A DNA stretch of 64,000 nucleotides from Candidatus Iainarchaeum sp. (GCA_028713935.1 JAQTNI010000001.1:1464-65463), one strand, 5' to 3'; shown: positions 2,759 to 53,235, counted from the stretch's first letter. Made by a program: numbers and translations. The notes: generated from the letters alone by a model not told the origin.

Positions 2759-3016
2759 AAAATCACCGGATAGATAATTATTGCCTAAGTTTTTAAGCTT
2801 TTCCGATTACTTTTTGTGTATATTAATTGGTTTTGTAAGTCTCTTTTTGAGACCGCAACTACCGCTTTTGGGATTGTTCAATTTGCACCTTGCAAATTGT
2901 TTCTTTTCCAACCTTTTTAAGGGCAGAATTGCTGGGCAATTGCGTTTTTCCTTGAAAAACGCTTCTTTTCCCGAGGCTTTTCTTTCCAAGAAAAGGCTCT
3001 GCGGGAGGTTTTTTGA

Positions 3017-3676: not shown

Positions 3677-4464
3677 AGCGCCATATTTTGAAATGGAAAC
3701 AGGCCCAGTTTTCTGAATTAAAGAAAATTGCTTCGCAGTACAAGGTAATTGCAATTGCGGATTTGACAAATTTTCCAGCAGATTTGTTTCAAGGGGTAAG
3801 AAAAAAATTGCAGGGAAAGGCAATTGTGCGTGTTTCCAAGACAAAGGTAATCAAAAAGGCTTTGGAAGAGGCAAATTTGAAGTCAACTGAATTGATTCCT
3901 GTTGTAAAGGGAAGCGTTGCAATTATTTTTACTGACATGGATTCTTTCGAGCTTTATGGCTTGCTTAAAAGAAACAAGGGAAGTGTTTCCGCAAAAGTCG
4001 GTTCCATTGCGCCCGCGGATATTGTTGTTCCTGCAATTGACACTGGTTTGCCTCCTGGCCCGGCGCTTTCTGATTTGAAGGCAGCAGGCCTTGAAGTGAG
4101 GGTGCAGGGCTCTACAATTGCAATTGTAAAGGACAAGGTTGTTGCAAAAAAAGGCGAGGCAATAACAAAGCCTGTTGCTGGAGTGCTTGCAAAGCTTGAC
4201 ATCAAGCCAATAAAAGTCGGCCTGAATATTGTTGCGTGTTATGAGAATGGCCAGTTGTTCCTGCCAAAGGTTTTGGACATTGATTCTGAACAGGTTTTTG
4301 CGCAGATTATGAAGGCTGTGCAGAGCGCAGTGAATTTGTCAGTTGAAATTGTTTATCCTACAAAGGAAACAATTGAATTGATTATTGCAAAGGCTGTAAG
4401 GCAGGCAAATGCAATTGATGCCTTGGCAAAGGCAAAACAGCCTGCGGAAGAAAAAAAGGAATAA
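3673..4464 (+). CDS. rpl10: 50S ribosomal protein L10 / acidic protein P0 (uL10)
   Basis: P0-type N-terminal domain and the archaeal L1-L10-L12 order. Confidence 0.85.
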
Positions 4465-5320: not shown

Positions 5321-5911
5321 GATTGCCATGTTGAGTTCAAAAACTGAACTATAGCGAGCTGCTCTTGCTGTCAGCTGATTTGCTGTCAGCCAAATTGGGT
5401 CATTAGGTTGTGCTTGCCTTCTGATTCCTTGCCTTCGCAGGTCCCCCGCTTCTTCAAATGCCCTTCGGTAGTTTTGCCGAGCCTCTTGGGCAAGCATTAC
5501 GGCTTGTTTTGCTTTGGATTCAAGAAAAGATTTTTCTTTTATGGCAATGTCCAGGGTTTCCTCGCCCGGAAGCGCTGGAATCTTCATTTTTTTCAACTCC
5601 CGAGGCGAATTTGTGCTTCTGCCAAAATAATCAACTGAGGTTTTTTTTGCCAGAACTGGTTTTTTTCTGTTAATTGGTTCCTTTAATAATGGTGACTGTC
5701 GGAATCGAGAAATTTGTTCTTCTGGCAAGCCGCATTTTAAGGCAACCTGGGCATCTGTTAATCCGGGTTGCTGAAGCAGCTTAAATGCCCAGGCAATTTT
5801 TACTTCCTTTGGCTGTGTTGTGATGTCTGGATTTTTTGGCAAGACTTTTCTTTTTATTTTTCGCATAATTGCCATTTTAACCGCCTTGTTTTTTACTTTC
5901 AGCCTTTCCAT
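5300..5911 (-). CDS. Hypothetical protein with a possible HTH
   Basis: 203-aa ORF with neighbour-like codon usage. No family recognised. Confidence 0.4.
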   Translation of the reverse strand: MERLKVKNKAVKMAIMRKIKRKVLPKNPDITTQPKEVKIAWAFKLLQQPGLTDAQVALKCGLPEEQISRFRQSPLLKEPINRKKPVLAKKTSVDYFGRSTNSPRELKKMKIPALPGEETLDIAIKEKSFLESKAKQAVMLAQEARQNYRRAFEEAGDLRRQGIRRQAQPNDPIWLTANQLTARAARYSSVFELNMAILKKIQK

Positions 5912-6618
5912 TCTTTCTGGGCTTTTGAGTATCTTTCAAAAGTGTCTGTGGGAAACCATTGGCCTTTGAATTCTTTTCCGAATAACTTTCCAAGGGCAGC
6001 TATTTTTGGAAAAGTTTCTTTTTCAATTGAAACCTTTCCTTCAGGAATTAGGCTAAAAATTTTGTTGGAAAGAATATATGCTCCGGAATTTATCAATGCC
6101 GGCTTGTTCAAAGAAGGGTCTTTTTCAGTGAAGGCGAGGATTTTTTCTCCTTTCATTTCAACGCTTCCAAAGTCCCTTGCATCTGCAATTTTTGTCAGCG
6201 CAATTGTTGCTATTGCGGAATTTTTTTCATGGGTTTCATTCACTGCCTTGAAATCAACATCTTTTACTTCGTCGCCGTTCATCATTATGAATTTTTCTTC
6301 TTTCCCAAAAAATTCTTCTGCAAATTTAAGGGCGCCTGCTGTTCCCAAAAAAGTTTCTTCCACATTGTAAAAAATTTTCAGGCCAAAAGAATCTCCGTTT
6401 TTAAAAAAAGTTTCAATTTGCCCGTGCTTATAGCCTGTTGCAAGGACAATTTCTTCAACACCGAATTTTTTGCACAATTCAATGTTCCACTGCAAAATTG
6501 GCTTTCCAAGAACAGGGAGCATTGGCTTTGCGGTTTCAAGAGTCAATGGCCTTAATCTTTCCCCAAGGCCGCCTGCAAGAATAAACGCTTTTTTTATGCC
6601 AAGCTTCATTTCAACCAT
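5899..6618 (-). CDS. Sugar-phosphate nucleotidyltransferase (NTP_transferase family)
   Basis: N-terminal ILAGGLGERLRPLT pyrophosphorylase motif, similar to G1P thymidylyl- and guanylyltransferases. Confidence 0.75.
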   Translation of the reverse strand: MVEMKLGIKKAFILAGGLGERLRPLTLETAKPMLPVLGKPILQWNIELCKKFGVEEIVLATGYKHGQIETFFKNGDSFGLKIFYNVEETFLGTAGALKFAEEFFGKEEKFIMMNGDEVKDVDFKAVNETHEKNSAIATIALTKIADARDFGSVEMKGEKILAFTEKDPSLNKPALINSGAYILSNKIFSLIPEGKVSIEKETFPKIAALGKLFGKEFKGQWFPTDTFERYSKAQKEWKG

Positions 6619-24744: not shown

Positions 24745-24867
24745 TGCAAAACACTTGAGCTATTGTTTCAATGTTTCTCTGCTTGACATCGTGCCAGGGC
24801 TTTTGCCGAAGGCTAGACTTGCGAAGCAAGTCTTTCTTTCCCTGGGCTTTCTTTTTAAGAAAGGCCA

Positions 24868-25045
24868 GTGGGGTTACAGGGATTTGAACCCTGATCAACT
24901 GGTCGCTCATTATTTTACCCTGCCTTTTTGTTGTTTACCAAAGAAAAATGGTTCTTTTCTTTGGGCAACTTACACTTTCTTTTCTTGCCAAGAAAAGAAA
25001 GGGCAGGTCTGGAGCCAGTCGCACTGCCTGGTTATGCTATAACCC
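24868..25045 (-). tRNA. tRNA-Trp (anticodon CCA) with a ~105-nt intron in the anticodon loop
   Basis: Acceptor GGGGTTA/TAACCCC, D-stem GCAT/GTGC, anticodon stem ACTGG/CCAGT, loop CTCCAGA, T-arm CAGGG-TTCAAAT-CCCTG, discriminator A. Intron is roughly 24907-25011. Confidence 0.75.
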
Positions 25046-25264
25046 CGTTGGGATAATTGAAGAATTTAAAGTTTTTAAAATCAGAGGTTTTGCATTGCAA
25101 AACCTTTCTTTCCCAGGGCTTTCTTTTTTAAAGAAAGGCCTGCCAAAGTAGCTCACTTGTTGAGTGCATAAAACAACTTTGTTTTGTTGTGTTTTTAAAG
25201 ATATGGAATTTTTTATTTTTCAAATCCGTCAATTTAATATATTCTAATTGCGCTACTATTACTG

Positions 25265-28200
25265 GTGTTTGTTTTGGCTGACAAAAAAGGTTCTTCGGAA
25301 GCTGGAGAAGAGATTTTTTCAGATGTTTTTGGCGTTGACGAGGATGAAAAGCGCGCCAGGGAAAGGCTTGCCAAGGAAACAGCTGAAAAAGAAGCAAAGC
25401 AAAAAGCCTCAAAAGGCGAGAAAGAGGAAAAAGAATTGCCTTCTGAAAAAGAAGAGCCTGAAATTGTTGCCTTGAAGAAAACCCAAAAAAAGCCTGCCCA
25501 AAAAATTCCAGTTGAGGCCAAAGCCACTGTTACTGATTCTCCCGAGCAAAAGGAATTGAAGCAGAAAATCAAAAAGGTTATTCTGGCAAAGGCAGCAAAG
25601 GCCGCTGAAAAGGATTCTGCAAAAATTTTTGACAAGGAAATTGACATCAAGGAAAAAGGAGTTAAGGAAAAAGAAAAAGAAGAAGAGCCAGAGCCTGAAG
25701 AAGAAAACGAAAAAGAAGATTCAAAAGAAATTGTGCCAAAATTTGCCCTTAATTTTTTGCAGGATTCAGAAGGAAGCGTTTTCATTGGCAGGAAAACAAG
25801 TGTTTTCCAGGAATATGGCAATGAAGCAGGCCTGTATATTGGGAATATTGCAGAGCCTTCCTTTGAAGGAAAAAAAGTTTTATTGGATGGTTTAAATCCG
25901 CATGTTGTTTTTGTCTGCGGGGCAAGAGGCAGCGGAAAATGCCTTACTGGAGACACTCTAATTGCGCTTGAAGATGGTACAGTAAAGCCGATAAGAGAAC
26001 TGGAACATGATAATCAAAAAGTTCTTTCAATGGATTCTGAAATGAAAATTGTTGCCACTCAAAAAAGCGGTTTTTTTAAAAGGAGAGTAAATAAGATTCT
26101 GGAAGTTAACTTAAAAAGTGGCAAAAAGATTAGGTTGACCCCTGAGCATCCTTTGTTTACAATGCAAGGCTGGAAGCCTGCGCAGGAGTTGAGAGAAGGA
26201 AGCAGAATTGCTGCTGTTAATAAACAGGTTGGGCTTGGTTTTTCAAGTAGCAGGCAGGAAAGCGTTTGTTATTCTGCCGCAAGGGCAAAATTAATGCAAA
26301 TTAATTTGCTTAACAAGGATGAGTTGGTGCAAAATGCTTCTTCAAATATTTTTTGGGACGAAATAACTGAAAAAACAGAATTATCAGGAGAATTTGAAGT
26401 TTTTGATATCAGTGTTCCAACACACCACAATTTTGTTGCAAATGATATTATTGTCCACAACAGTTATCTGCTTGGAGTGCTTGCTGAAGAGCTTGCCTTG
26501 AAGAATCCCAATGTCGGCCTTATTGTAATCGACCCTGTAGGGGTTTTTTGGGGAATGAGGCATCCTAACAAGGAAGAAAAAGAGCTTGAGGCTCTTGCAA
26601 AAACAGGCCTTCTTCCGAACGGCCTGAATAATCTCAAAGTTTTTATTCCAAAGGGAATGAAGGACAAGGTTCCGAAAAACACTTTTGATGCGGCTTTCAG
26701 CATGCCTGCTTCTCTTCTAACTGCAGAAGACTGGTGCCTAACTTTTGGCATTGACAGGTTTTCCCCAAGCGGCCTGCTCCTTGAAAAAGTTTTGCACAAG
26801 ACAAAGCACGGCTATAAGACAAAAGAAGGAAAATATGTAAAATCAGAGGATGTTTTTGATTTGGAGGACATTATTGAATGCCTGCATAATGACAATGAAA
26901 TAAATTCAGCCGAGCTTGGCTATAAGGCCGATTCAATAAGGGCCCTTGCTTCCAGGTTTGATGCCGCAAAAGCCTGGGGAGTTTTTGATGAAAGAGGAAC
27001 TCCTTTGATTGAAATTTCAAAGGAAAACCAGTTGACAATTATTGACACTTCTTTTTTGGATGACAATGTTTCCGCGCTAATAATCGGGATTCTTGCAAGA
27101 AGAATTCTTGCCGCGAGAAAATTAAGCACTCGCAGGGAAGCTGCTTCAAAATTCAAGGATGATTCTGTTGAAAACCTAATGGAATTGGGAATCCCTCCCA
27201 CATGGCTGTTTATTGATGAGGCACACACTTTGATTCCAAGCGGAAACATGAAAACTCCTGCAAGCAGTGCCCTTGTTGAATATGTGAAGCAGGGAAGGCA
27301 GCCTGGCTGCAGCCTTGTTTTTGCAACACAGCAGCCGAGCGCAATTGACACCCATGTTTTAAGCCAGCTTGACATTATTGTGGCGCACAAGCTTGTTTTT
27401 GACGATGACATAAAGGCAGTTTACAAGAGAACTCCAACTATTATTCCAAAGCAATACAAGAACAGCAATTTTATCAAAACACTGCCAGTTGGAATGGGAA
27501 TTGTTGGAGATAGAAGAGAAGAAACCTCGCGCGCTTTTGTAATGAAAATCAGGCCAAGAATGTCACAGCACGAAGGCAGGGAAGCAGTTACTTCTGAAAG
27601 GTCTTCACAGGTTTTTGACAAATCCAAGGTTCTTGCCCTTGCAATTGGAATGGCTTATGCCCAGATTGAAAGAAAGCCGACAGAAGCCTCTTACATTAGC
27701 CAGATTGTCCAGACTCTTAATACAAAATACAAGTCAACTTTGCAGCTTTCAGATGTTCTTGATGCGCTTGAAAAAAAAGGCGTCGGAATCAATCCCAAAA
27801 CTTCTGTTTTAAGCATTCCGGACGAGGAAGCAGAGCATGAAGTAGTGGAAGAAGAAGTCCGTGAAACAGAAGAAGAAGTGCAAAAAGAAGTGAAATCAGT
27901 TTCACCAGAAGAAAGCATTTCACTAATGGCTTTTCCAGCCAATCTTCAGGAAGAATCAGCAAGAAGGCTTTTTGACAGGCTGAGAAAGAAAAAAACTCTC
28001 GGCTTGTTTGGAAAAGAAGAGCTGATTGAAAAAATTTCCTTGAAATATTTGCCAATTTTCCATGTTACTTTCAATGTTTTCAATGAAAAAGGCTCTTTCA
28101 ATATTGCAGAGGCCTATGTTGATTCCCATTCAGGGGAATTTTTGAATTTTGATTTTGAACAAAAACAATTTGTTGAATCCCACGGCTTAAGCCTGCTTTC

Positions 28201-28657
28201 GGAAATGGGCACTTTGGAATCAAGAATCCTGCTTTTGCTTTCCGAAAAAAAATCCTCTTTTGAAGACCTTCAAAACAGGCTTGGAGAAGAAGAAAAAAGC
28301 ATTGAAAAGGCAATTGATTCGCTTATGGAAGCAAATGCAATTGCGCTTGAACAGTCAAAAGAAAAAGACTGGTTTTTTTTGAAAACAAAAATTGATTTGC
28401 CAAAAAGCCCCTTGCATTCCCTGCTTACAAGCGTGAAAAAACTGCCAGTGGAAGAAATTTCCGCTTCCAATCTTGAAAAGCCGCAGTTTGACAAAACAAA
28501 ATTCCAGGAGGTTTTTTCAAAAATCTGGGGAAAAGTCCAGATAAAAAGCATTTCAGAAGTTTTTTTGCCAAGATATGAGGCAATTATCAGGAAACAGGAC
28601 AATTCAATAAGGGCAATTTCAGTTGACGCCTACTCAGGAAAAGAAATTGCGGACTAA
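25265..28657 (+). CDS. HerA/FtsK-superfamily ATPase (DUF87-like) with an acidic Lys/Glu-rich N-terminal extension, an intein in the P-loop and a ~370-aa C-terminal extension
   Basis: Walker A is GARGSGK[intein]SYLLG. Walker B LFIDEAHTLIP. HerA-type ATQQPSAIDTHVLSQLDIIVAHKL. Confidence 0.7.
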   Translation: MFVLADKKGSSEAGEEIFSDVFGVDEDEKRARERLAKETAEKEAKQKASKGEKEEKELPSEKEEPEIVALKKTQKKPAQKIPVEAKATVTDSPEQKELKQKIKKVILAKAAKAAEKDSAKIFDKEIDIKEKGVKEKEKEEEPEPEEENEKEDSKEIVPKFALNFLQDSEGSVFIGRKTSVFQEYGNEAGLYIGNIAEPSFEGKKVLLDGLNPHVVFVCGARGSGKCLTGDTLIALEDGTVKPIRELEHDNQKVLSMDSEMKIVATQKSGFFKRRVNKILEVNLKSGKKIRLTPEHPLFTMQGWKPAQELREGSRIAAVNKQVGLGFSSSRQESVCYSAARAKLMQINLLNKDELVQNASSNIFWDEITEKTELSGEFEVFDISVPTHHNFVANDIIVHNSYLLGVLAEELALKNPNVGLIVIDPVGVFWGMRHPNKEEKELEALAKTGLLPNGLNNLKVFIPKGMKDKVPKNTFDAAFSMPASLLTAEDWCLTFGIDRFSPSGLLLEKVLHKTKHGYKTKEGKYVKSEDVFDLEDIIECLHNDNEINSAELGYKADSIRALASRFDAAKAWGVFDERGTPLIEISKENQLTIIDTSFLDDNVSALIIGILARRILAARKLSTRREAASKFKDDSVENLMELGIPPTWLFIDEAHTLIPSGNMKTPASSALVEYVKQGRQPGCSLVFATQQPSAIDTHVLSQLDIIVAHKLVFDDDIKAVYKRTPTIIPKQYKNSNFIKTLPVGMGIVGDRREETSRAFVMKIRPRMSQHEGREAVTSERSSQVFDKSKVLALAIGMAYAQIERKPTEASYISQIVQTLNTKYKSTLQLSDVLDALEKKGVGINPKTSVLSIPDEEAEHEVVEEEVRETEEEVQKEVKSVSPEESISLMAFPANLQEESARRLFDRLRKKKTLGLFGKEELIEKISLKYLPIFHVTFNVFNEKGSFNIAEAYVDSHSGEFLNFDFEQKQFVESHGLSLLSEMGTLESRILLLLSEKKSSFEDLQNRLGEEEKSIEKAIDSLMEANAIALEQSKEKDWFFLKTKIDLPKSPLHSLLTSVKKLPVEEISASNLEKPQFDKTKFQEVFSKIWGKVQIKSISEVFLPRYEAIIRKQDNSIRAISVDAYSGKEIAD
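25940..26461 (+). mobile_element. Mini-intein (174 aa, no homing-endonuclease domain) inserted after the Walker A lysine
   Basis: Starts Cys-LTGDTLIALEDG (Hint block A), ends ...NDIIVHN followed by Ser +1. Removing it restores GxxxxGKS. Confidence 0.8.
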
Positions 28658-32475: not shown

Positions 32476-33510
32476 TTATTCCATGCTTTGCAAAAGCCCC
32501 ACTCTTCCCAGTTCCAAAAAATATTCGTTTTCAGGGTTATTGATTCCTTTTTTGCATTTTGTGTAGGTCGCAAGAATAACATAGATTGCGTGCCCGAGTT
32601 TTATGTAAGTTGGCAATGCTTCAAGTTCTTTCTGTGTTAGCGGAATAATTTTTTGGTATTCTTCCAAAACGATTTCAATGTTTTTTTCAGTTTTGCTTTT
32701 GCTTTCCTGCTCAAAAAGCACAGTGCAAGCCATTACCGCAAGCTCCTGTATTCTTGGATAATAATTTGCACATGCAAAATCAATAAGCCACAATTTTCCG
32801 TTTTTATCCTTCATTATGTTTGTTTTTGTCAAATCGCCATGAACAAAACAATGGGGCAATTTGTTTATTTCAAGTGCTTTTAAATCTTTCACCAATGGAA
32901 GAATTTTTTTCAGGTCTTCAGAATCCAGAAATTTTTTTGCTATTCGGAATTCCTTCAAAAAACTTGTTATTGCCCAATGGTCATAAACAAACTTTGGCTT
33001 TATTTTCATGCTGTTTATTATTGCGGCCTGCTTTGCCAAAAACCTTATTTCCAAATCGGCCAGTTTTTCTTTTGATTCAAACAAAGTTTTGCCTTCAATA
33101 AAATCCATTGCAACAAGCCGCAATTTTTTTCCCCTGACATTTAAAATCTGCAAATGCCTGTTTTTTGCCTCCAATAATTTTGGAGTGACCACATTGCTTT
33201 CCAAGGCCTTTTCCATGATTTTGACATATCTCTTGCATTCTTGGAGCGTTCTAAAATCAGCAAAGACTTTGACAAAAAAATTCCCTTTTTTTGTTTGCAG
33301 GGCAAAATTAAAATCTTCATAGCCAATTGCAACAAGCCTGTTTGAAACAAAAGCGCCAAGCCCAAAGCATTTGCAAACAGCTTCAGAAATATCTTCCAAT
33401 CTGCCTTTGAAGCCAATCCTTTTTTTGAATAAATCCCCCTCAGCCAAGCCAATCACTTTTTTTATTAGCAATCTGTTTACCAAAGATTCAAGTTCTTTTT
33501 CTTTGGGCAA
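32476..33510 (-). CDS. Aminoglycoside/choline-kinase-like phosphotransferase (APH family); start uncertain
   Basis: HGDLTKTNIMKDKNGKLWLIDF catalytic loop. The annotated TTG start lies inside a tRNA-associated repeat module. Confidence 0.6.
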   Translation of the reverse strand: MPKEKELESLVNRLLIKKVIGLAEGDLFKKRIGFKGRLEDISEAVCKCFGLGAFVSNRLVAIGYEDFNFALQTKKGNFFVKVFADFRTLQECKRYVKIMEKALESNVVTPKLLEAKNRHLQILNVRGKKLRLVAMDFIEGKTLFESKEKLADLEIRFLAKQAAIINSMKIKPKFVYDHWAITSFLKEFRIAKKFLDSEDLKKILPLVKDLKALEINKLPHCFVHGDLTKTNIMKDKNGKLWLIDFACANYYPRIQELAVMACTVLFEQESKSKTEKNIEIVLEEYQKIIPLTQKELEALPTYIKLGHAIYVILATYTKCKKGINNPENEYFLELGRVGLLQSME

Positions 33511-33550
33511 CTTACACTTTCTTTTTCTTTCAAAGAAAAAGGAAGGGCAG

Positions 33551-33711
33551 TGCGTCCGCCGGGATTCGAACCCGGGTTACGAGCTCTTTCCTGCTTCAAT
33601 TTTGTTTATTATTTGTTGAAGTTCTTTCTTTTGGGCAACTTACACTTTTCTTTCTTTCAAGAAAGAAAAGGGCAGTGGGAAGCTCGAATCCTACCGCTAG
33701 ATTACAGACGC
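33551..33711 (-). tRNA. tRNA-Gly (anticodon CCC) with a ~90-nt intron
   Basis: Acceptor GCGTCTG/CGGACGC (one G-U pair), D-loop AGCGGTAGG, anticodon stem CGAGC/GCTCG, loop TTCCCAC, T-arm CCGGG-TTCGAAT-CCCGG. Intron is roughly 33585-33674. Confidence 0.75.
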
Positions 33712-34551
33712 GTTTTCTTTTTTTTCTGTTGTGCCTGTTTCTGTTTGCTGTAATTGTGCTGATGGCGCTATTAAGTATGCCTGTTGGTTTTCTATTTTTA
33801 TTTGCATTCCTGGCAGGTAGATTTTTACTAGGTTTTTTTCTGTGGGAGGAAATTTTTCCGCCAGTGCGAGCAATTGCAGTGTTTGTTTTTTTTCTATTAC
33901 AAGGTTGTTTTGCTCTGTTTTTGCCTGCAGAGATTCTTTTATTTGGTTTGCAAAGTTTGGGTTTGTGCATTCAATGCGGATTTGTTGCAGTTCTTGTTTT
34001 TCAATTATTGCAAAAATTGTGGGAATTGTTTCCTGTGAAAGAGAAATTTTTTTGAAGTCATTAAAATTCAGTTCTTTTAGTGCTGTTATCTGGTGCAAGA
34101 GCACGTCTGAAAGGTATTTTAGTTGTTGTGCCCGTTTGTCTGTTTTTTCCTTTAGTTCAAGCAAATCGGAAATGTAAAAATTGCTGCTTGTTTTTGCTGC
34201 TTTCAGCAAATCGTTGTCTGCTTTGCTTCTTTCAATGAGGGTTTGCAGCATTTTTACTATTGTTTCAACCTCTTCAACAGGGTTTTTTGATGCCATGCTT
34301 TCATTTAGCCTTGTCAATAGCTTGTTTTTCATTTCAGAATTGATTTCAACAAGGCCCTTGTCTGTTACAAAAATCTTGTTTGCCTGCCTCTGCACAACGC
34401 CAATTGCAGCCAAATCTTTCAAAGTCCTACTTAAAGCAGCGCGAGCAGAATTAATGCTGCCATATTCAGAAGTGATTCTGTTAAGCAGCTCGTTGTAATC
34501 AATTCCGGGATTCTGCTTAAGAATTAACAAAAAATTGTTTCTCTGGGTCAC
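33697..34551 (-). CDS. Winged-helix DNA-binding protein with a long helical C-terminal region
   Basis: N-terminal wHTH-like segment. Its stop overlaps the first ~15 nt of tRNA-Gly. Confidence 0.45.
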   Translation of the reverse strand: MTQRNNFLLILKQNPGIDYNELLNRITSEYGSINSARAALSRTLKDLAAIGVVQRQANKIFVTDKGLVEINSEMKNKLLTRLNESMASKNPVEEVETIVKMLQTLIERSKADNDLLKAAKTSSNFYISDLLELKEKTDKRAQQLKYLSDVLLHQITALKELNFNDFKKISLSQETIPTIFAIIEKQELQQIRIECTNPNFANQIKESLQAKTEQNNLVIEKKQTLQLLALAEKFPPTEKNLVKIYLPGMQIKIENQQAYLIAPSAQLQQTETGTTEKKENASVI

Positions 34552-35671: not shown

Positions 35672-36088
35672 TCAGTTTTGCCCTATTCCACAAAGTTTTT
35701 TCCATTGCTCTTCCACTGTCCTTTCGTTCACATATGGCTTGTGGTGCCTGAATCCGCCTCCAAATCCTGCTGGGATGTGCAGTAATTCGTGAATCAGGGT
35801 TTTTGTTTTGTCATCCTCGCTTAGCCTGTCAAATTTTTCCGAAAGCAGTTCAATCACATAAAAAGGCTCTGTTTTCATTCCAAGCTGCATTGCTTTTCCT
35901 AACCCATGTATGCGTGCAATTGTCCTTCTTGTTTTTGTCCCTGCACTTTTAAGACAGGCAATTCTTTCAGGCGCAATATGGTGAAAACCGAGCTTTTCAA
36001 CAAGTTCCCTTGCCTTCAAAGTCCATTCTTCTGAAAAAGCGTATTTCACAAAAAAAACCTTATAACATTTCAGAAATTTTTTTTCCAA
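35672..36088 (-). CDS. Putative zinc metallopeptidase (HExxH)
   Basis: HELLHIPAGFGGGFRHH motif. Confidence 0.45.
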   Translation of the reverse strand: MEKKFLKCYKVFFVKYAFSEEWTLKARELVEKLGFHHIAPERIACLKSAGTKTRRTIARIHGLGKAMQLGMKTEPFYVIELLSEKFDRLSEDDKTKTLIHELLHIPAGFGGGFRHHKPYVNERTVEEQWKKLCGIGQN

Positions 36089-45837: not shown

Positions 45838-46108
45838 TTTCACCAAGATTTTAAAAAACCATATCAATAATACTTTTTGAGTTGGGAGCAAGGTGGGCAT
45901 GAACAAGGTTCATGCCTGCCAAATTTTTACTTCTCCAAAAGAAGCAATTAAAAACCACTTGATTCCTAATTTTAACACTGCAGAGGTGGCAAGGCCTTTC
46001 TTTGCCTTGCAAAGAAAGCCCTGGGAAAGAAATACTTTTTGCCAATGCAAAAAGTGCTTCGCAAAGGAAACCCCTGGGAAAAAATTGCCGCCAATAAAAG
46101 AAAATCAT

Positions 46109-46302
46109 GCAGAGGTGGCAGAACTTGGTAAATGCGCCGGCCTTGAGAAGCCTTTCTTTCTAAAGAAAGAAAGCCTTGGGAAAGAAACAGTTTGGCTCTG
46201 CCAAACTGTAGTTCGCTTCGCTTACATTAGAAAAAAAGATTATTATTTTTCAGGCGAGCCGGTGTCCGAAAGGGCGCGTGGGTTCAAATCCCATCCTCTG
46301 CG
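46109..46302 (+). tRNA. tRNA-Ser (anticodon TGA) with a ~108-nt intron and long variable arm
   Basis: Acceptor GCAGAGG/CCTCTGC, anticodon stem CCGGC/GCCGG, loop CTTGAGA, variable arm TGTCCGAAAGGGCGC, T-arm GTGGG-TTCAAAT-CCCAT. Intron is roughly 46149-46256. Confidence 0.7.
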
Positions 46303-46314
46303 CAATCTTTTTTT

Positions 46315-50548: not shown

Positions 50549-50622
50549 TCGCCTTTTAATTTTTCCAAAGCCCCAAGCACCTTTTTATTTAAATATTTGC
50601 ACAACTTATTATTTCAAGCAAT

Positions 50623-50868
50623 GCGGGGGTGGCAGAGCGGTCTAATGCGCACGCCTGGAAAGGCCTTTTCTTGCAAGCAAGAAAAGCCCTGGGAAAAGAA
50701 CAATTTGCTTTGCAAATTGGTTGATTCCCCGGTTCTCCCCAAAGGATAATTTCAGTTAGAAATTTTTTTCTTTGGGGTGGACTGCAGACCTTTCTTTTTA
50801 TTAAAAAGAAAGGGATATAGAGAGCGTGTTCTCGAAAGGGAGCGCGAGTTCAAATCTCGTCCCCCGCG
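50623..50868 (+). tRNA. tRNA-Ser (anticodon GGA) with a ~160-nt intron; its 3' end is the integration target (attL)
   Basis: GCGGGGGTGGCAGAGCGGTCTAATGCG 5' half, anticodon stem CACGC/GCGTG, loop CTGGAAA, long variable arm, T-arm GCGAG-TTCAAAT-CTCGT, acceptor 3' CCCCCGC. Confidence 0.75.
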
Positions 50869-50958
50869 TTAAACGAAAAGTTCAAATCCAATTGAACGGA
50901 AAATTCAAAAAAGAAGCTTTTTTATTTTGCTTGGAGCATAATTGTTATTGGTGGTATA

Positions 50959-52279: not shown

Positions 52280-52822
52280 ATGCTTGCGAGTGAATTGTTT
52301 TCTTCAAAGGAGAGAATTGGGCTTATCAAGATTCTTTTTTATACGCCCAATTTGGAATTAAAAGTTAGGTCTCTTGCTCGGTTTGCAAAAGTAAGCCCTG
52401 CTCTTGTTTCCGGCACGATTGCGATTCTTAAGAAACAAGGAGCTATAAACAAAGGCAAAATTGATTTGTTGCATCCTTCTGCAAGGGCCTTGAAAATACT
52501 ATTGAATATTGAAAGCCTCACCTCTGCCAAATTTGTTCCTGAAATAAGAAGCATTTTCAAGGATTGCAATGGCATTGGTTTGTATGGTAGTTGGGCAAAC
52601 GGAACCAATTCAAAAGACAGTGATTTGGATTTTTGGGTAAAATCAGAATCTGAAAGCGAGGAAAAGTCGGCTAAAATAAGTCGTTTTGTTAAGCAGAAGC
52701 TTGGCTTGGAAGCCAGCATAATTATTCTTACACAAAAAAGGCTGAAAGAATTGAAAGAAAAGGATTTTGTTTTTTATTCAATGCTGTACAATTGTTTTTT
52801 GTTGTGGGGCGAAGGAATATGA
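52280..52822 (+). CDS. Minimal nucleotidyltransferase (MNT) with N-terminal wHTH
   Basis: GSWANGTNSKDSDLDF pol-beta-like nucleotidyltransferase motif. Confidence 0.7.
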   Translation: MLASELFSSKERIGLIKILFYTPNLELKVRSLARFAKVSPALVSGTIAILKKQGAINKGKIDLLHPSARALKILLNIESLTSAKFVPEIRSIFKDCNGIGLYGSWANGTNSKDSDLDFWVKSESESEEKSAKISRFVKQKLGLEASIIILTQKRLKELKEKDFVFYSMLYNCFLLWGEGI

Positions 52823-53235
52823 TTGATTTTAATGAGTGCCTTGCAAAAGGCCTTTTGGCAAGAATTCCCGCTTCAAGGGAAAAAGCTTTGCAGAGTATTG
52901 AGAAAGCAAAAGAACTATTGGAAGAAGCAAAAGCAAGCCTTGAAGAGGAAAGAATCAATTCCACAGTAATAGTTGCCTATCTTGCAATTTTTCATGCTGC
53001 AAGGGCACTGCTTTTCAAAGATGGTTACAGGGAAAAAAGCCACGAATGCGTAATCCGCTATCTGGAAGAAAAATATCCTGAAATAAAACCAGGGCAGATT
53101 GAAGCCTTGGAAAAATACAAAAGTGAAAGAACCCACACACAATACGATGTGAGTTATAATCCAAGCGAAGAACAAGCAGAAAAAATGATAAAATTCACGG
53201 AAAAATTCATCCAAACAATAGAAGAAATGATTTAA
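52819..53235 (+). CDS. HEPN-domain protein (partner of the MNT)
   Basis: IVAYLAIFHAARALLFKDGYREKSHE HEPN pattern. ATGA overlap with the MNT gene. Confidence 0.65.
   Translation: MIDFNECLAKGLLARIPASREKALQSIEKAKELLEEAKASLEEERINSTVIVAYLAIFHAARALLFKDGYREKSHECVIRYLEEKYPEIKPGQIEALEKYKSERTHTQYDVSYNPSEEQAEKMIKFTEKFIQTIEEMI

Follow-up and report, generated by a model that had tools for sequence, protein, structure and literature searches.

In a 64,000-nucleotide stretch of DNA from Candidatus Iainarchaeum sp. (termed here the window), a gene for tRNA-Trp(CCA) at 24869-25046 on the minus strand is interrupted within its anticodon loop by a 105-nucleotide intron. The explanation favored here, to which a probability of about 0.7 is assigned, is that the tRNA gene is a working one, that its intron has a relaxed splicing motif, and that the intron itself is one copy of a dispersed repeat cassette of three-strand layout, whose members occupy sites that are cut away from transcripts. 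The gene and its intron are of a known kind; what is new is the cassette, its three-way covariation, the polarity with which it approaches tRNA processing sites, and its spread through DPANN archaea.

Read along the minus strand from 25046 to 24869, the gene consists of GGGGTTATAGCATAACCAGGCAGTGCGACTGGCTCCAG, the 105 inserted nucleotides and ACCAGTTGATCAGGGTTCAAATCCCTGTAACCCCA. The Rfam tRNA model, run with laxer filters, aligns to it from end to end with a score of 48.8 bits (E = 8e-9 locally and 2e-7 over the whole window), skipping 109 nucleotides within the anticodon loop, and ARAGORN with intron search identifies it as tRNA-Trp(cca) with an intron of 105 nucleotides. Both agree with the first-pass annotation of this DNA, which had placed an intron of about that length after position 37 of a Trp(CCA) tRNA and had named the ARAGORN search as a check. 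Neither default ARAGORN nor Rfam at gathering filters detects the gene: the former reports tRNA-Ala only and overlooks the window's other four tRNA genes, and the latter reports three tRNAs, tRNA-Trp not among them. Removal of the intron restores a canonical cloverleaf, as had been claimed. In an alignment of the spliced exons with six related tRNA-Trp genes, the cloverleaf is paired in 98% of the cells, 10 pairs are altered on both sides, and none of 500 shuffles equals this result; the acceptor pairs 6:67 and 7:66, for instance, are compensated, occurring as U:A/C:G and A:U/G:C among the four closest genes. Because the cloverleaf is intact and carries compensatory changes, the gene looks functional. 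The closest exons are those of an Iainarchaeum metagenome-assembled genome (MAG), L008 (L numbers denote loci outside the window), and the genes of the window itself are ordinary archaeal housekeeping genes.

The intron starts with ACCTGCC, as first read, and its core (25006-24952) consists of CTGCCC, TTTCTTTTCTT, GGC, AAGAAAAGAAA, GTGTAAGTTGCCC and AAAGAAAAGAA. This is the order of a repeat termed here module A: a head (CTGCCC), a pyrimidine arm (Y), a loop, a purine arm (R), a 13-nucleotide linker and a purine tract (R') that mirrors R. The likeness to the tRNA-Gly intron that had been reported earlier is borne out, in that a 56-nucleotide core is common to the tRNA-Trp intron, the tRNA-Gly(CCC) intron and the tRNA-Gly 3' trailer, with the linker exact in all three. 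The hairpins reported on both flanks of the tRNA-Trp gene are real as well (25 nucleotides at 96% identity; 10 matches to their pattern versus 2.6 expected) and represent a second repeat, module B, which is ordered as GGCC, pyrimidine arm, loop, purine arm, GCCYN, GGG, purine tract and a second hairpin with an apical UGC-NNN-GCA. The proposal that intron and flanks are built from the same hairpin modules is thus correct as regards their one shared architecture and the exchange of modules among orthologues, but the intron is a module A and the flanks are module B; judged by their sequences, the two are separate families with the same three-strand layout. Of the window's five tRNA genes, all but tRNA-Ala carry modules.

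Outside the window, the 18-mer AAGTGTAAGTTGCCCAAA from the linker occurs in 52 stretches of a species-representative genome collection, 42 of which are from DPANN archaea; its hosts include Iainarchaeota, the complete AR10 genome, Pacearchaeota, Aenigmatarchaeota, Nanoarchaeia and other archaeal MAGs. The full architecture surrounds the 18-mer in all archaeal matches and in none of the 10 bacterial ones (about 17 being expected by chance). The linker is identical across several phyla while the arms drift, ten different G patterns occurring among module A arms. Triplet statistics for module A were compiled from 45 distinct copies on about 40 DPANN contigs. In 47 of 47 copies R' is an in-register mirror of R, with the register fixed relative to the linker; the mean mirror identity is 9.78 out of 10, versus 7.68 +/- 0.19 with partners shuffled between copies (maximum 8.49 in 2000 shuffles). 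Written as Y : R * R', the module A triplets are T:A*A or C:G*G in 455 of 458 cases; a single stem mismatch occurs, and T.G wobbles are absent. In module B 131 of 134 triplets are canonical, giving 586 of 592 for both module types together. Neither this mirror structure nor the breadth of the distribution among DPANN archaea had been recognized in the first-pass annotation.

Two other readings of R' were considered and rejected: that it repeats R in direct orientation and could pair with Y in a competing hairpin, where the in-register mirror is never worse and usually better than a shifted direct match; and that it is, family-wide, one arm of a second ordinary hairpin, where a Watson-Crick partner of at least 8 nucleotides downstream of R' exists in 6 of 47 copies versus 61 of 470 controls (the tRNA-Trp copy being one for which this reading does hold). 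Since no polymerase copies a mirror repeat from a template, the mirror pattern points to selection for a fold that sets R' antiparallel to R. The R-R' mirror and the complementarity of Y are the Y, R and R' blocks by which intrastrand triplex motifs of the purine-motif, ITxF class II-like kind are defined, and the three-way covariation is, on this comparative evidence, the signature of an intrastrand purine-motif triple helix, whose purine motif would lie on the strand as written and whose pyrimidine motif would lie on the complement. Module A would be under selection, that is, to adopt a hairpin along which a third strand lies. At two loci (L008, about 5900-6165, minus strand; L009, 6960-7060) a single hairpin is followed by three to five tandem units of GTTGCCC plus a purine tract, corresponding to the linker end and R', an arrangement that looks like the addition of further third strands.

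The placement of module A follows a rule. In 31 of 46 copies the CTGCCC head lies at most 6 nucleotides from a splice site or tRNA end, and it always faces the tRNA body: it is found 1-6 nucleotides from the 5' splice site in 15 sense introns, 1-3 nucleotides from the 3' splice site in 5 antisense introns, 1-4 nucleotides after the discriminator in 7-8 sense copies, and 2-3 nucleotides before position +1 in 3-4 antisense copies. About 15 copies have no recognized tRNA beside them, a few of which are bordered by direct duplications (16-39 nucleotides) of an adjacent gene start or tRNA end. One copy stands within a 23S rRNA insertion that is closed, like the tRNA-Trp intron, by a CCTGCC/GGCAG helix (L037 1-1214, a groundwater DPANN MAG), where the cassette apparently also serves as an rRNA intron. 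The family thus sits at sites that are cut away from the transcript--namely, in introns of tRNA and rRNA, immediately past the discriminator and immediately ahead of +1. An oligo-T terminator role for the pyrimidine arm in trailers was rejected, the longest T runs being similar in introns (4-7) and trailers (4-5).

That the cassette is mobile on a short time scale is suggested by tRNA-Trp genes of related genomes, among them two further orthologues retrieved by scanning metagenomes with 20 nucleotides of exon 1. Orthologous exons are identical at 69-70 of 73 positions, and their introns are different. The L054 gene has the same exons as the window and no intron; L055 has a module B intron of 58-64 nucleotides together with a module B trailer; in L008 the intron, of 62 nucleotides, is a module B and the trailer a module A, opposite to the arrangement in the window; an inverted module A is present in L020 and L043; and L016 has an unrelated 71-nucleotide intron. 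Because orthologues carry no intron, module B or an inverted module A, the tRNA-Trp intron is a recently acquired, exchangeable cassette, with modules A and B replacing each other. In the same way the tRNA-Ser(GGA) intron begins with module A in L015 and with module B in the window, and similar introns recur across tRNA identities (Trp and Gly in the window; Ser, Cys, Asn, Leu and others in related genomes). Between close relatives, then, the cassette is gained, lost, inverted or swapped.

The exon-intron junctions were examined by pairing nucleotides 32-35 with intron positions n-5 to n-2 and cutting after the second base of a 3-nucleotide bulge. Because GACC is present at both junctions, five placements yield an identical mature tRNA; all five were scored, and only the 37/38 placement preserves the anticodon stem and fits the splice-motif geometry. 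There the central helix has three of four pairs (C32-U33-C34 with GAG at 24908-24906; C35 is opposite U), and the 3' bulge (C, G / A38) is a canonical one of 3 nucleotides adjoining the intact anticodon stem (helix h). The 5' site (A36, G37 / A) sits in an internal loop of 3-4 x 10 nucleotides, followed by CCUGCC paired with GGCAGG; ten unpaired nucleotides (GUAAAAUAAU) separate GGCAGG from GAG, and the outer helix h' is displaced by these 10 nucleotides. The intron consequently lacks the strict helix-bulge-helix-bulge-helix motif (hBHBh': two 3-nucleotide bulges, a 4-bp central helix and contiguous outer helices), and such a motif was rejected for each of the five equivalent junctions, the one that keeps the anticodon stem being relaxed. 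The bulge-helix-bulge that the first-pass annotation looked for is therefore half there: textbook at the 3' site and replaced by an internal loop at the 5' site. Its proposed intron-closing sequence does not close the intron, since GGCAGG (24924-24919) pairs with CCTGCC (25007-25002) but 15 nucleotides (GTAAAATAATGAGCG) come after it. A GCGAC pentamer is indeed present, as noted then, in the 5' exon and at the intron 3' end; it is absent from orthologous introns, about one stretch of this kind in ten should hold a repeated 5-mer by chance, and it was set aside as coincidence.

In DPANN archaea the splicing endonucleases carry an L3 loop, which has been linked with relaxed motifs and disrupted tRNA genes (PMC5829648), and the relaxed tRNA-Trp motif is of the kind thought to be accepted by such loop-bearing enzymes. 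Removal of the intron would probably fall to the archaeal splicing endonuclease and ligase, with cuts in the precursor after G37 and before A38: the 3' cut would fall in the canonical 3-nucleotide bulge between the anticodon stem and the short C32-C34/GAG helix, and the 5' cut in the internal loop beside the 6-bp CCUGCC/GGCAGG helix, which would close the remainder of the intron into a compact domain. The intron of tRNA-Gly(CCC), built likewise from module A, has a perfect hBHBh' motif, as do many introns in related genomes. By folding programs that model only Watson-Crick and wobble pairs, the tRNA-Trp intron forms a closed three-way structure (RNA, -34.2 kcal/mol, z = -4.95; DNA, -25.4 kcal/mol, z = -6.5), with a different, uninformative pairing of the junction at minimum energy.

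Two rival accounts concern the gene rather than the repeat. A disrupted pseudogene, in which the repeat has inactivated one copy of tRNA-Trp while a working gene lies elsewhere, is suggested by the non-canonical 5' splice site with its displaced closing helix and by the fact that the visible sequence amounts to 64 kb of a genome; yet the exons are intact with acceptor-stem changes compensated relative to relatives, the 3' splice site is canonical, and introns of the same kind interrupt four of the window's five tRNA genes and dozens in related genomes, several with perfect motifs. DPANN genomes, moreover, usually have one gene per tRNA, and we consider a pseudogene very improbable. Hardly credible is a box C/D guide intron of the type known from Haloferax and other Euryarchaeota, which would guide 2'-O-methylation at C34 and at position 39. 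The length of 105 nucleotides and the position match the Haloferax intron, and one near-match to a C box is present (AUAAUGA, one mismatch); against this, the intron contains no CUGA, whether linear or circularized, and hence no D or D' box, no complementarity of at least 8 nucleotides to the mature tRNA (the longest is 7 nucleotides and lies outside the anticodon arm), and no Rfam snoRNA or C/D match, in line with the earlier remark that no box C/D pair is visible. Its content is also not conserved among orthologues, one of which has no intron. A guide design was rejected on these grounds, and the intron has no guide function. The 71-nucleotide intron of L016 (381-525), which lacks the module, contains two GAUGA motifs and a UGGAGC complementary to the anticodon loop, and may be a remnant of a box C/D design. 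Rfam at E up to 0.1 finds only tRNA in the window and nothing over modules at other loci, and no K-turn or H/ACA features were seen by eye in the linker.

Various observations weigh against the preferred explanation, that of a spliced, dispersed three-strand cassette. As regards splicing, the 5' site lies outside a canonical bulge with the closing helix 10 nucleotides displaced, so that a strict endonuclease would not cut; no splicing endonuclease or RtcB-type ligase gene was found among the roughly 58 open reading frames (ORFs) of the window; and a second, intronless tRNA-Trp gene may lie beyond the 64 kb that are visible. As regards mobility, no transposase, reverse transcriptase or other mobility gene was found among the window ORFs; viral contigs gave no match, for which reason a viral origin was rejected; and flanking target duplications accompany only 3-5 copies (L029, L031, L038 and, weakly, L014/L021), being too few and, at 16-39 nucleotides, too variable in length to be retained as a general transposon-like feature. 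As regards the triple helix, R' of the tRNA-Trp copy has a 10-bp Watson-Crick partner, Y'' (24948-24938), and minimum-energy folding gives two hairpins inside the closing helix rather than a triplex. Purine-motif triplexes, by the textbook account, form with DNA and exclude RNA; the purine-motif orientation is nonetheless the transcribed one in 15 of 20 intronic copies of module A and in the intronic module B copies inspected. Finally, the related loci were found through the module itself, which biases all frequencies outside the window. In two of the loci with duplications (L029, about 4000-4100; L031, 7200-7500) the repeats flanking module A hold a gene start and ribosome-binding site, and in L031 module A plus duplication is tandemly repeated; in L038 (2110-2260) the flanking duplication comprises the last 22 nucleotides of tRNA-Lys plus its trailer.

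What the repeat itself does is open to several accounts. The most far-reaching, which is tentative and carries somewhat less than even odds, is that modules A and B are selected natural intramolecular triple helices, acting as cassettes that create endonuclease-spliced introns and attach head first to ends made by RNase P, RNase Z or the endonuclease. A purely DNA-level element is doubtful: a repeat of the BoxC/TM_ECO type would fold only in single-stranded or supercoiled DNA and promote recombination and rearrangement, and would be seen in tRNA introns and flanks simply for the harmlessness of insertions there. The Y-loop-R-loop-R' order is that of bacterial intrastrand triplex motifs, whose members fold into triplex DNA in vitro and lie at loci prone to instability (PMC4666352). 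Module A occurs in both orientations, its stems are perfect palindromes without wobble pairs, modules are swapped and introns present or absent between close relatives, and the R' unit is tandemly multiplied in L008 and L009. Harmlessness alone cannot explain the spacing of 1-6 nucleotides or the fixed polarity of the head; orientation among introns is biased (15 sense versus 5 antisense for module A; all sense for the inspected module B copies); and the linker is constant across several phyla while the arms drift. The absence of wobble pairs, the use of both orientations and purine-motif chemistry favor DNA as the molecule that folds, and the orientation bias in introns favors RNA or a transcription-linked process.

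An RNA end cap, in which a host-useful hairpin with its third strand shields the end of the neighboring RNA, or of the excised intron, from exonucleases after a cut by RNase Z, RNase P or the endonuclease, is unlikely. On this account tRNAs serve as punctuation within polycistronic transcripts. It would account for the stem being always terminal (head 1-4 nucleotides from 3' ends in sense, 2-3 nucleotides from 5' ends in antisense), and same-strand ORFs follow most of the 3'-abutting copies and precede three of four 5'-abutting ones; the frame of the gene at 33697-34551, for example, enters tRNA-Gly with module A preceding the next same-strand gene, and tRNA-Trp, module B and a phosphoribosyltransferase gene share one strand. 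Modules in antisense orientation would, as RNA, yield U.A-U/C+.G-C triplets, a well-known kind of RNA triplex. The end cap would nevertheless leave unexplained the copies within introns, the one in the rRNA insertion and those between divergent genes, same-strand neighbors are common anyway in compact genomes, most copies are oriented such that an RNA purine-motif triplex would be needed, and the lack of any G.U pair in 592 stem positions is unusual for a selected RNA helix. A partial parallel is the MALAT1/MEN-beta 3'-end triple helix, which lies upstream of a tRNA-like RNase P site: module copies abutting a tRNA 5' end would read U-rich, U-rich and A-rich tract followed by RNase P site, and would leave a triple helix at a 3' end made by tRNA processing. 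The likeness covers 3-4 of 46 copies, and the module differs in having no ENE (element for nuclear expression) with an internal loop.

Table 1. Parts of the tRNA-Trp(CCA) gene and its intron, and module copies in the window
Feature	Coordinates	Strand	Basis or remarks
tRNA-Trp(CCA) 5' exon	25009..25046	-	positions 1-37, anticodon CCA; Rfam, ARAGORN intron search, cloverleaf covariation
tRNA-Trp 3' exon	24869..24903	-	positions 38-73, discriminator A, CCA not encoded; Rfam, ARAGORN intron search, cloverleaf covariation
Intron at canonical 37/38	24904..25008	-	105 nt; Rfam, ARAGORN intron search, splice geometry test
3' splice region	24904..24908	-	GAG 24906-24908 pairs with C32-U33-C34; CG 24904-24905 plus A38 form the 3-nt bulge; geometry test
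CCTGCC, 5' arm of intron-closing helix, including module head	25002..25007	-	pairs with GGCAGG 24919-24924
GGCAGG, 3' arm of intron-closing helix	24919..24924	-	10 unpaired nt from central splice helix
Pyrimidine arm Y (CCC TTTCTTTTCTT)	24990..25003	-	module A
Purine arm R (AAGAAAAGAAA)	24976..24986	-	Watson-Crick partner of Y
Conserved linker GTGTAAGTTGCCC	24963..24975	-	exact in 3 window copies and about 40 DPANN contigs
R' (AAAGAAAAGAA), proposed third strand	24952..24962	-	in-register mirror of R, 11/11
Y'' (TTTTTCTTTGG)	24938..24948	-	Watson-Crick partner of R' in tRNA-Trp copy; partner in 6/47 family members, the control rate
TAAACA tail motif	24932..24937	-	long subfamily of module A
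A/T-rich stretch TTTTAAAAAC TTTAAAT, candidate archaeal TATA region	25061..25080	-	-34 to -19; read from sequence
Module B, tRNA-Trp 3' trailer	24816..24866	-	starts 3 nt after discriminator; GGCC-Y-loop-R-GCCCA-GGG-R'-hairpin 2
Module B upstream of tRNA-Trp	25086..25140	-	about 40 nt upstream, orientation as tRNA
Module A in tRNA-Gly(CCC) intron	33622..33675	-	strict hBHBh' motif
Module A directly after tRNA-Gly discriminator	33493..33550	-	
Module B at start of tRNA-Ser(UGA) intron	46150..46208	+	
Module B upstream of tRNA-Ser(UGA)	45993..46056	+	12-nt copy of tRNA 5' end before module
Module B at start of tRNA-Ser(GGA) intron	50662..50719	+	162-nt intron
Module B, intergenic, no tRNA nearby	2942..2999	-	between divergent protein genes

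The tail motif TAAACA follows R' by 10-14 nucleotides in 6 of 47 module A copies, including all three in the window (24932-24937, 33477-33482 and 33599-33604, approximate positions) and copies in L017, L018 and L019; its reverse complement (TGTTTA...) resembles an archaeal TATA element and could matter for antisense copies upstream of a tRNA. Further tRNA genes of the window are also missed or miscalled. That for tRNA-Ser(GGA) (50622-50869, plus strand) escapes Rfam at every threshold tried and default ARAGORN, being found only by ARAGORN with intron search and by eye; its intron ends with a separate pyrimidine/purine hairpin (50789-50815). At 45980-46303 (plus strand) ARAGORN with intron search miscalls a tRNA-Glu with a 236-nucleotide intron, because a 12-nucleotide copy of the 5' end of the true gene, tRNA-Ser(UGA) (46109-46302), lies before module B at 45980-45991 (GCAGAGGTGGCA); this fragment looks like an insertion footprint. 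The frame of the gene at 33697-34551 runs 14 nucleotides into tRNA-Gly (33697-33711, minus strand), leaving no room for a separate promoter, and the upstream gene, tRNA-Gly, module A and the next gene probably form one transcript. Among the protein genes are a HerA-like ATPase (25265-28657, plus strand; DUF87, HerA_C) with an intein (Intein_splicing, E = 3e-24) and a long acidic, lysine-rich N-terminal extension; adjacent ORFs for an NTP_transf_2 nucleotidyltransferase and a HEPN-domain protein, the usual toxin-antitoxin arrangement (52280-53235, plus strand); and, amid housekeeping genes, an ORF with a 'putative phage metallopeptidase' domain (35672-36088, minus strand; E = 3e-18).

The route by which archaeal tRNA genes acquire introns is a long-standing question, and tRNA-Trp is found here in four states among close relatives: without an intron, with a 60-nucleotide cassette, with a different 105-nucleotide cassette, and with an inverted cassette. 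A recent event involving a defined inserted unit makes intron gain testable. The near-perfect three-way covariation argues for a three-stranded fold selected in living cells, something that is hard to show for natural purine-motif triplexes; if the tentative triple-helix proposal above is true, it would prove through covariation, for the first time, that a three-stranded fold of such a type is selected, and would offer a traceable route for the gain of archaeal tRNA and rRNA introns. More practically, tRNA finders at default settings miss module-bearing genes, and this may account in part for tRNAs that have been reported as 'missing' from DPANN genomes.

Compared with other archaeal introns that are spliced by endonuclease at 37/38, that of tRNA-Trp is alike in position, exon context, 3-nucleotide 3' bulge and anticodon-intron pairing; it differs in its relaxed 5' site, in its length, and in being a dispersed repeat that is also found outside introns. 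The euryarchaeal tRNA-Trp box C/D intron (Clouet d'Orval et al. 2001, cited in PMC4090602) occupies the same site in the same tRNA at a similar length; the window intron differs in having no C/D boxes or guides. Nearer in architecture are TM_ECO and BoxC, bacterial intrastrand motifs that adopt a DNA triplex in vitro (Holder et al. 2015, PMC4666352): these share with the module the order Y, loop, R, loop, mirror R on one strand, the C:G*G and T:A*A triplets, and the many dispersed, non-coding copies tied to variable loci. The module arms are A/T-rich rather than G/C-rich, the second loop of module A is a conserved 13 nucleotides, the hosts are archaeal, and the modules are tightly linked to tRNA and rRNA processing sites and used as intron content. 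Under the published search definition for such motifs, with loops of 1-6 nucleotides (PMC4666352), module A fails on its 13-nucleotide second loop and module B fits (4 nucleotides, CCYN, plus GG). No description of an archaeal or tRNA-linked version of an intrastrand triplex repeat was found in the literature searched.

Two further comparisons concern mobility. Like repetitive extragenic palindromic (REP) elements and miniature inverted-repeat transposable elements (MITEs), the module is short, non-coding and structured, is scattered in either orientation and relies on functions encoded elsewhere; it differs from them in having no terminal inverted repeats, few and variable target duplications (16-39 nucleotides), and mirror as well as dyad symmetry. 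The closest precedents for its behavior are the transposed intron families of Thermoproteales (Fujishima et al. 2010, as summarized in PMC4090602) and the intron gain in Caldiarchaeum (PMC3293823). As in those cases, similar or near-identical introns occur in different tRNA species, their presence varies between orthologues of close relatives through gain and loss, and a scattered tRNA 5' fragment lies beside an insert (here at 45980-45991). Set against those accounts, the module is distinguished by its DPANN hosts, by its occurrence also at tRNA 5' and 3' ends, in a 23S rRNA insertion and in intergenic DNA, by its use of both orientations with no recombinase gene associated, and by its three-strand architecture.

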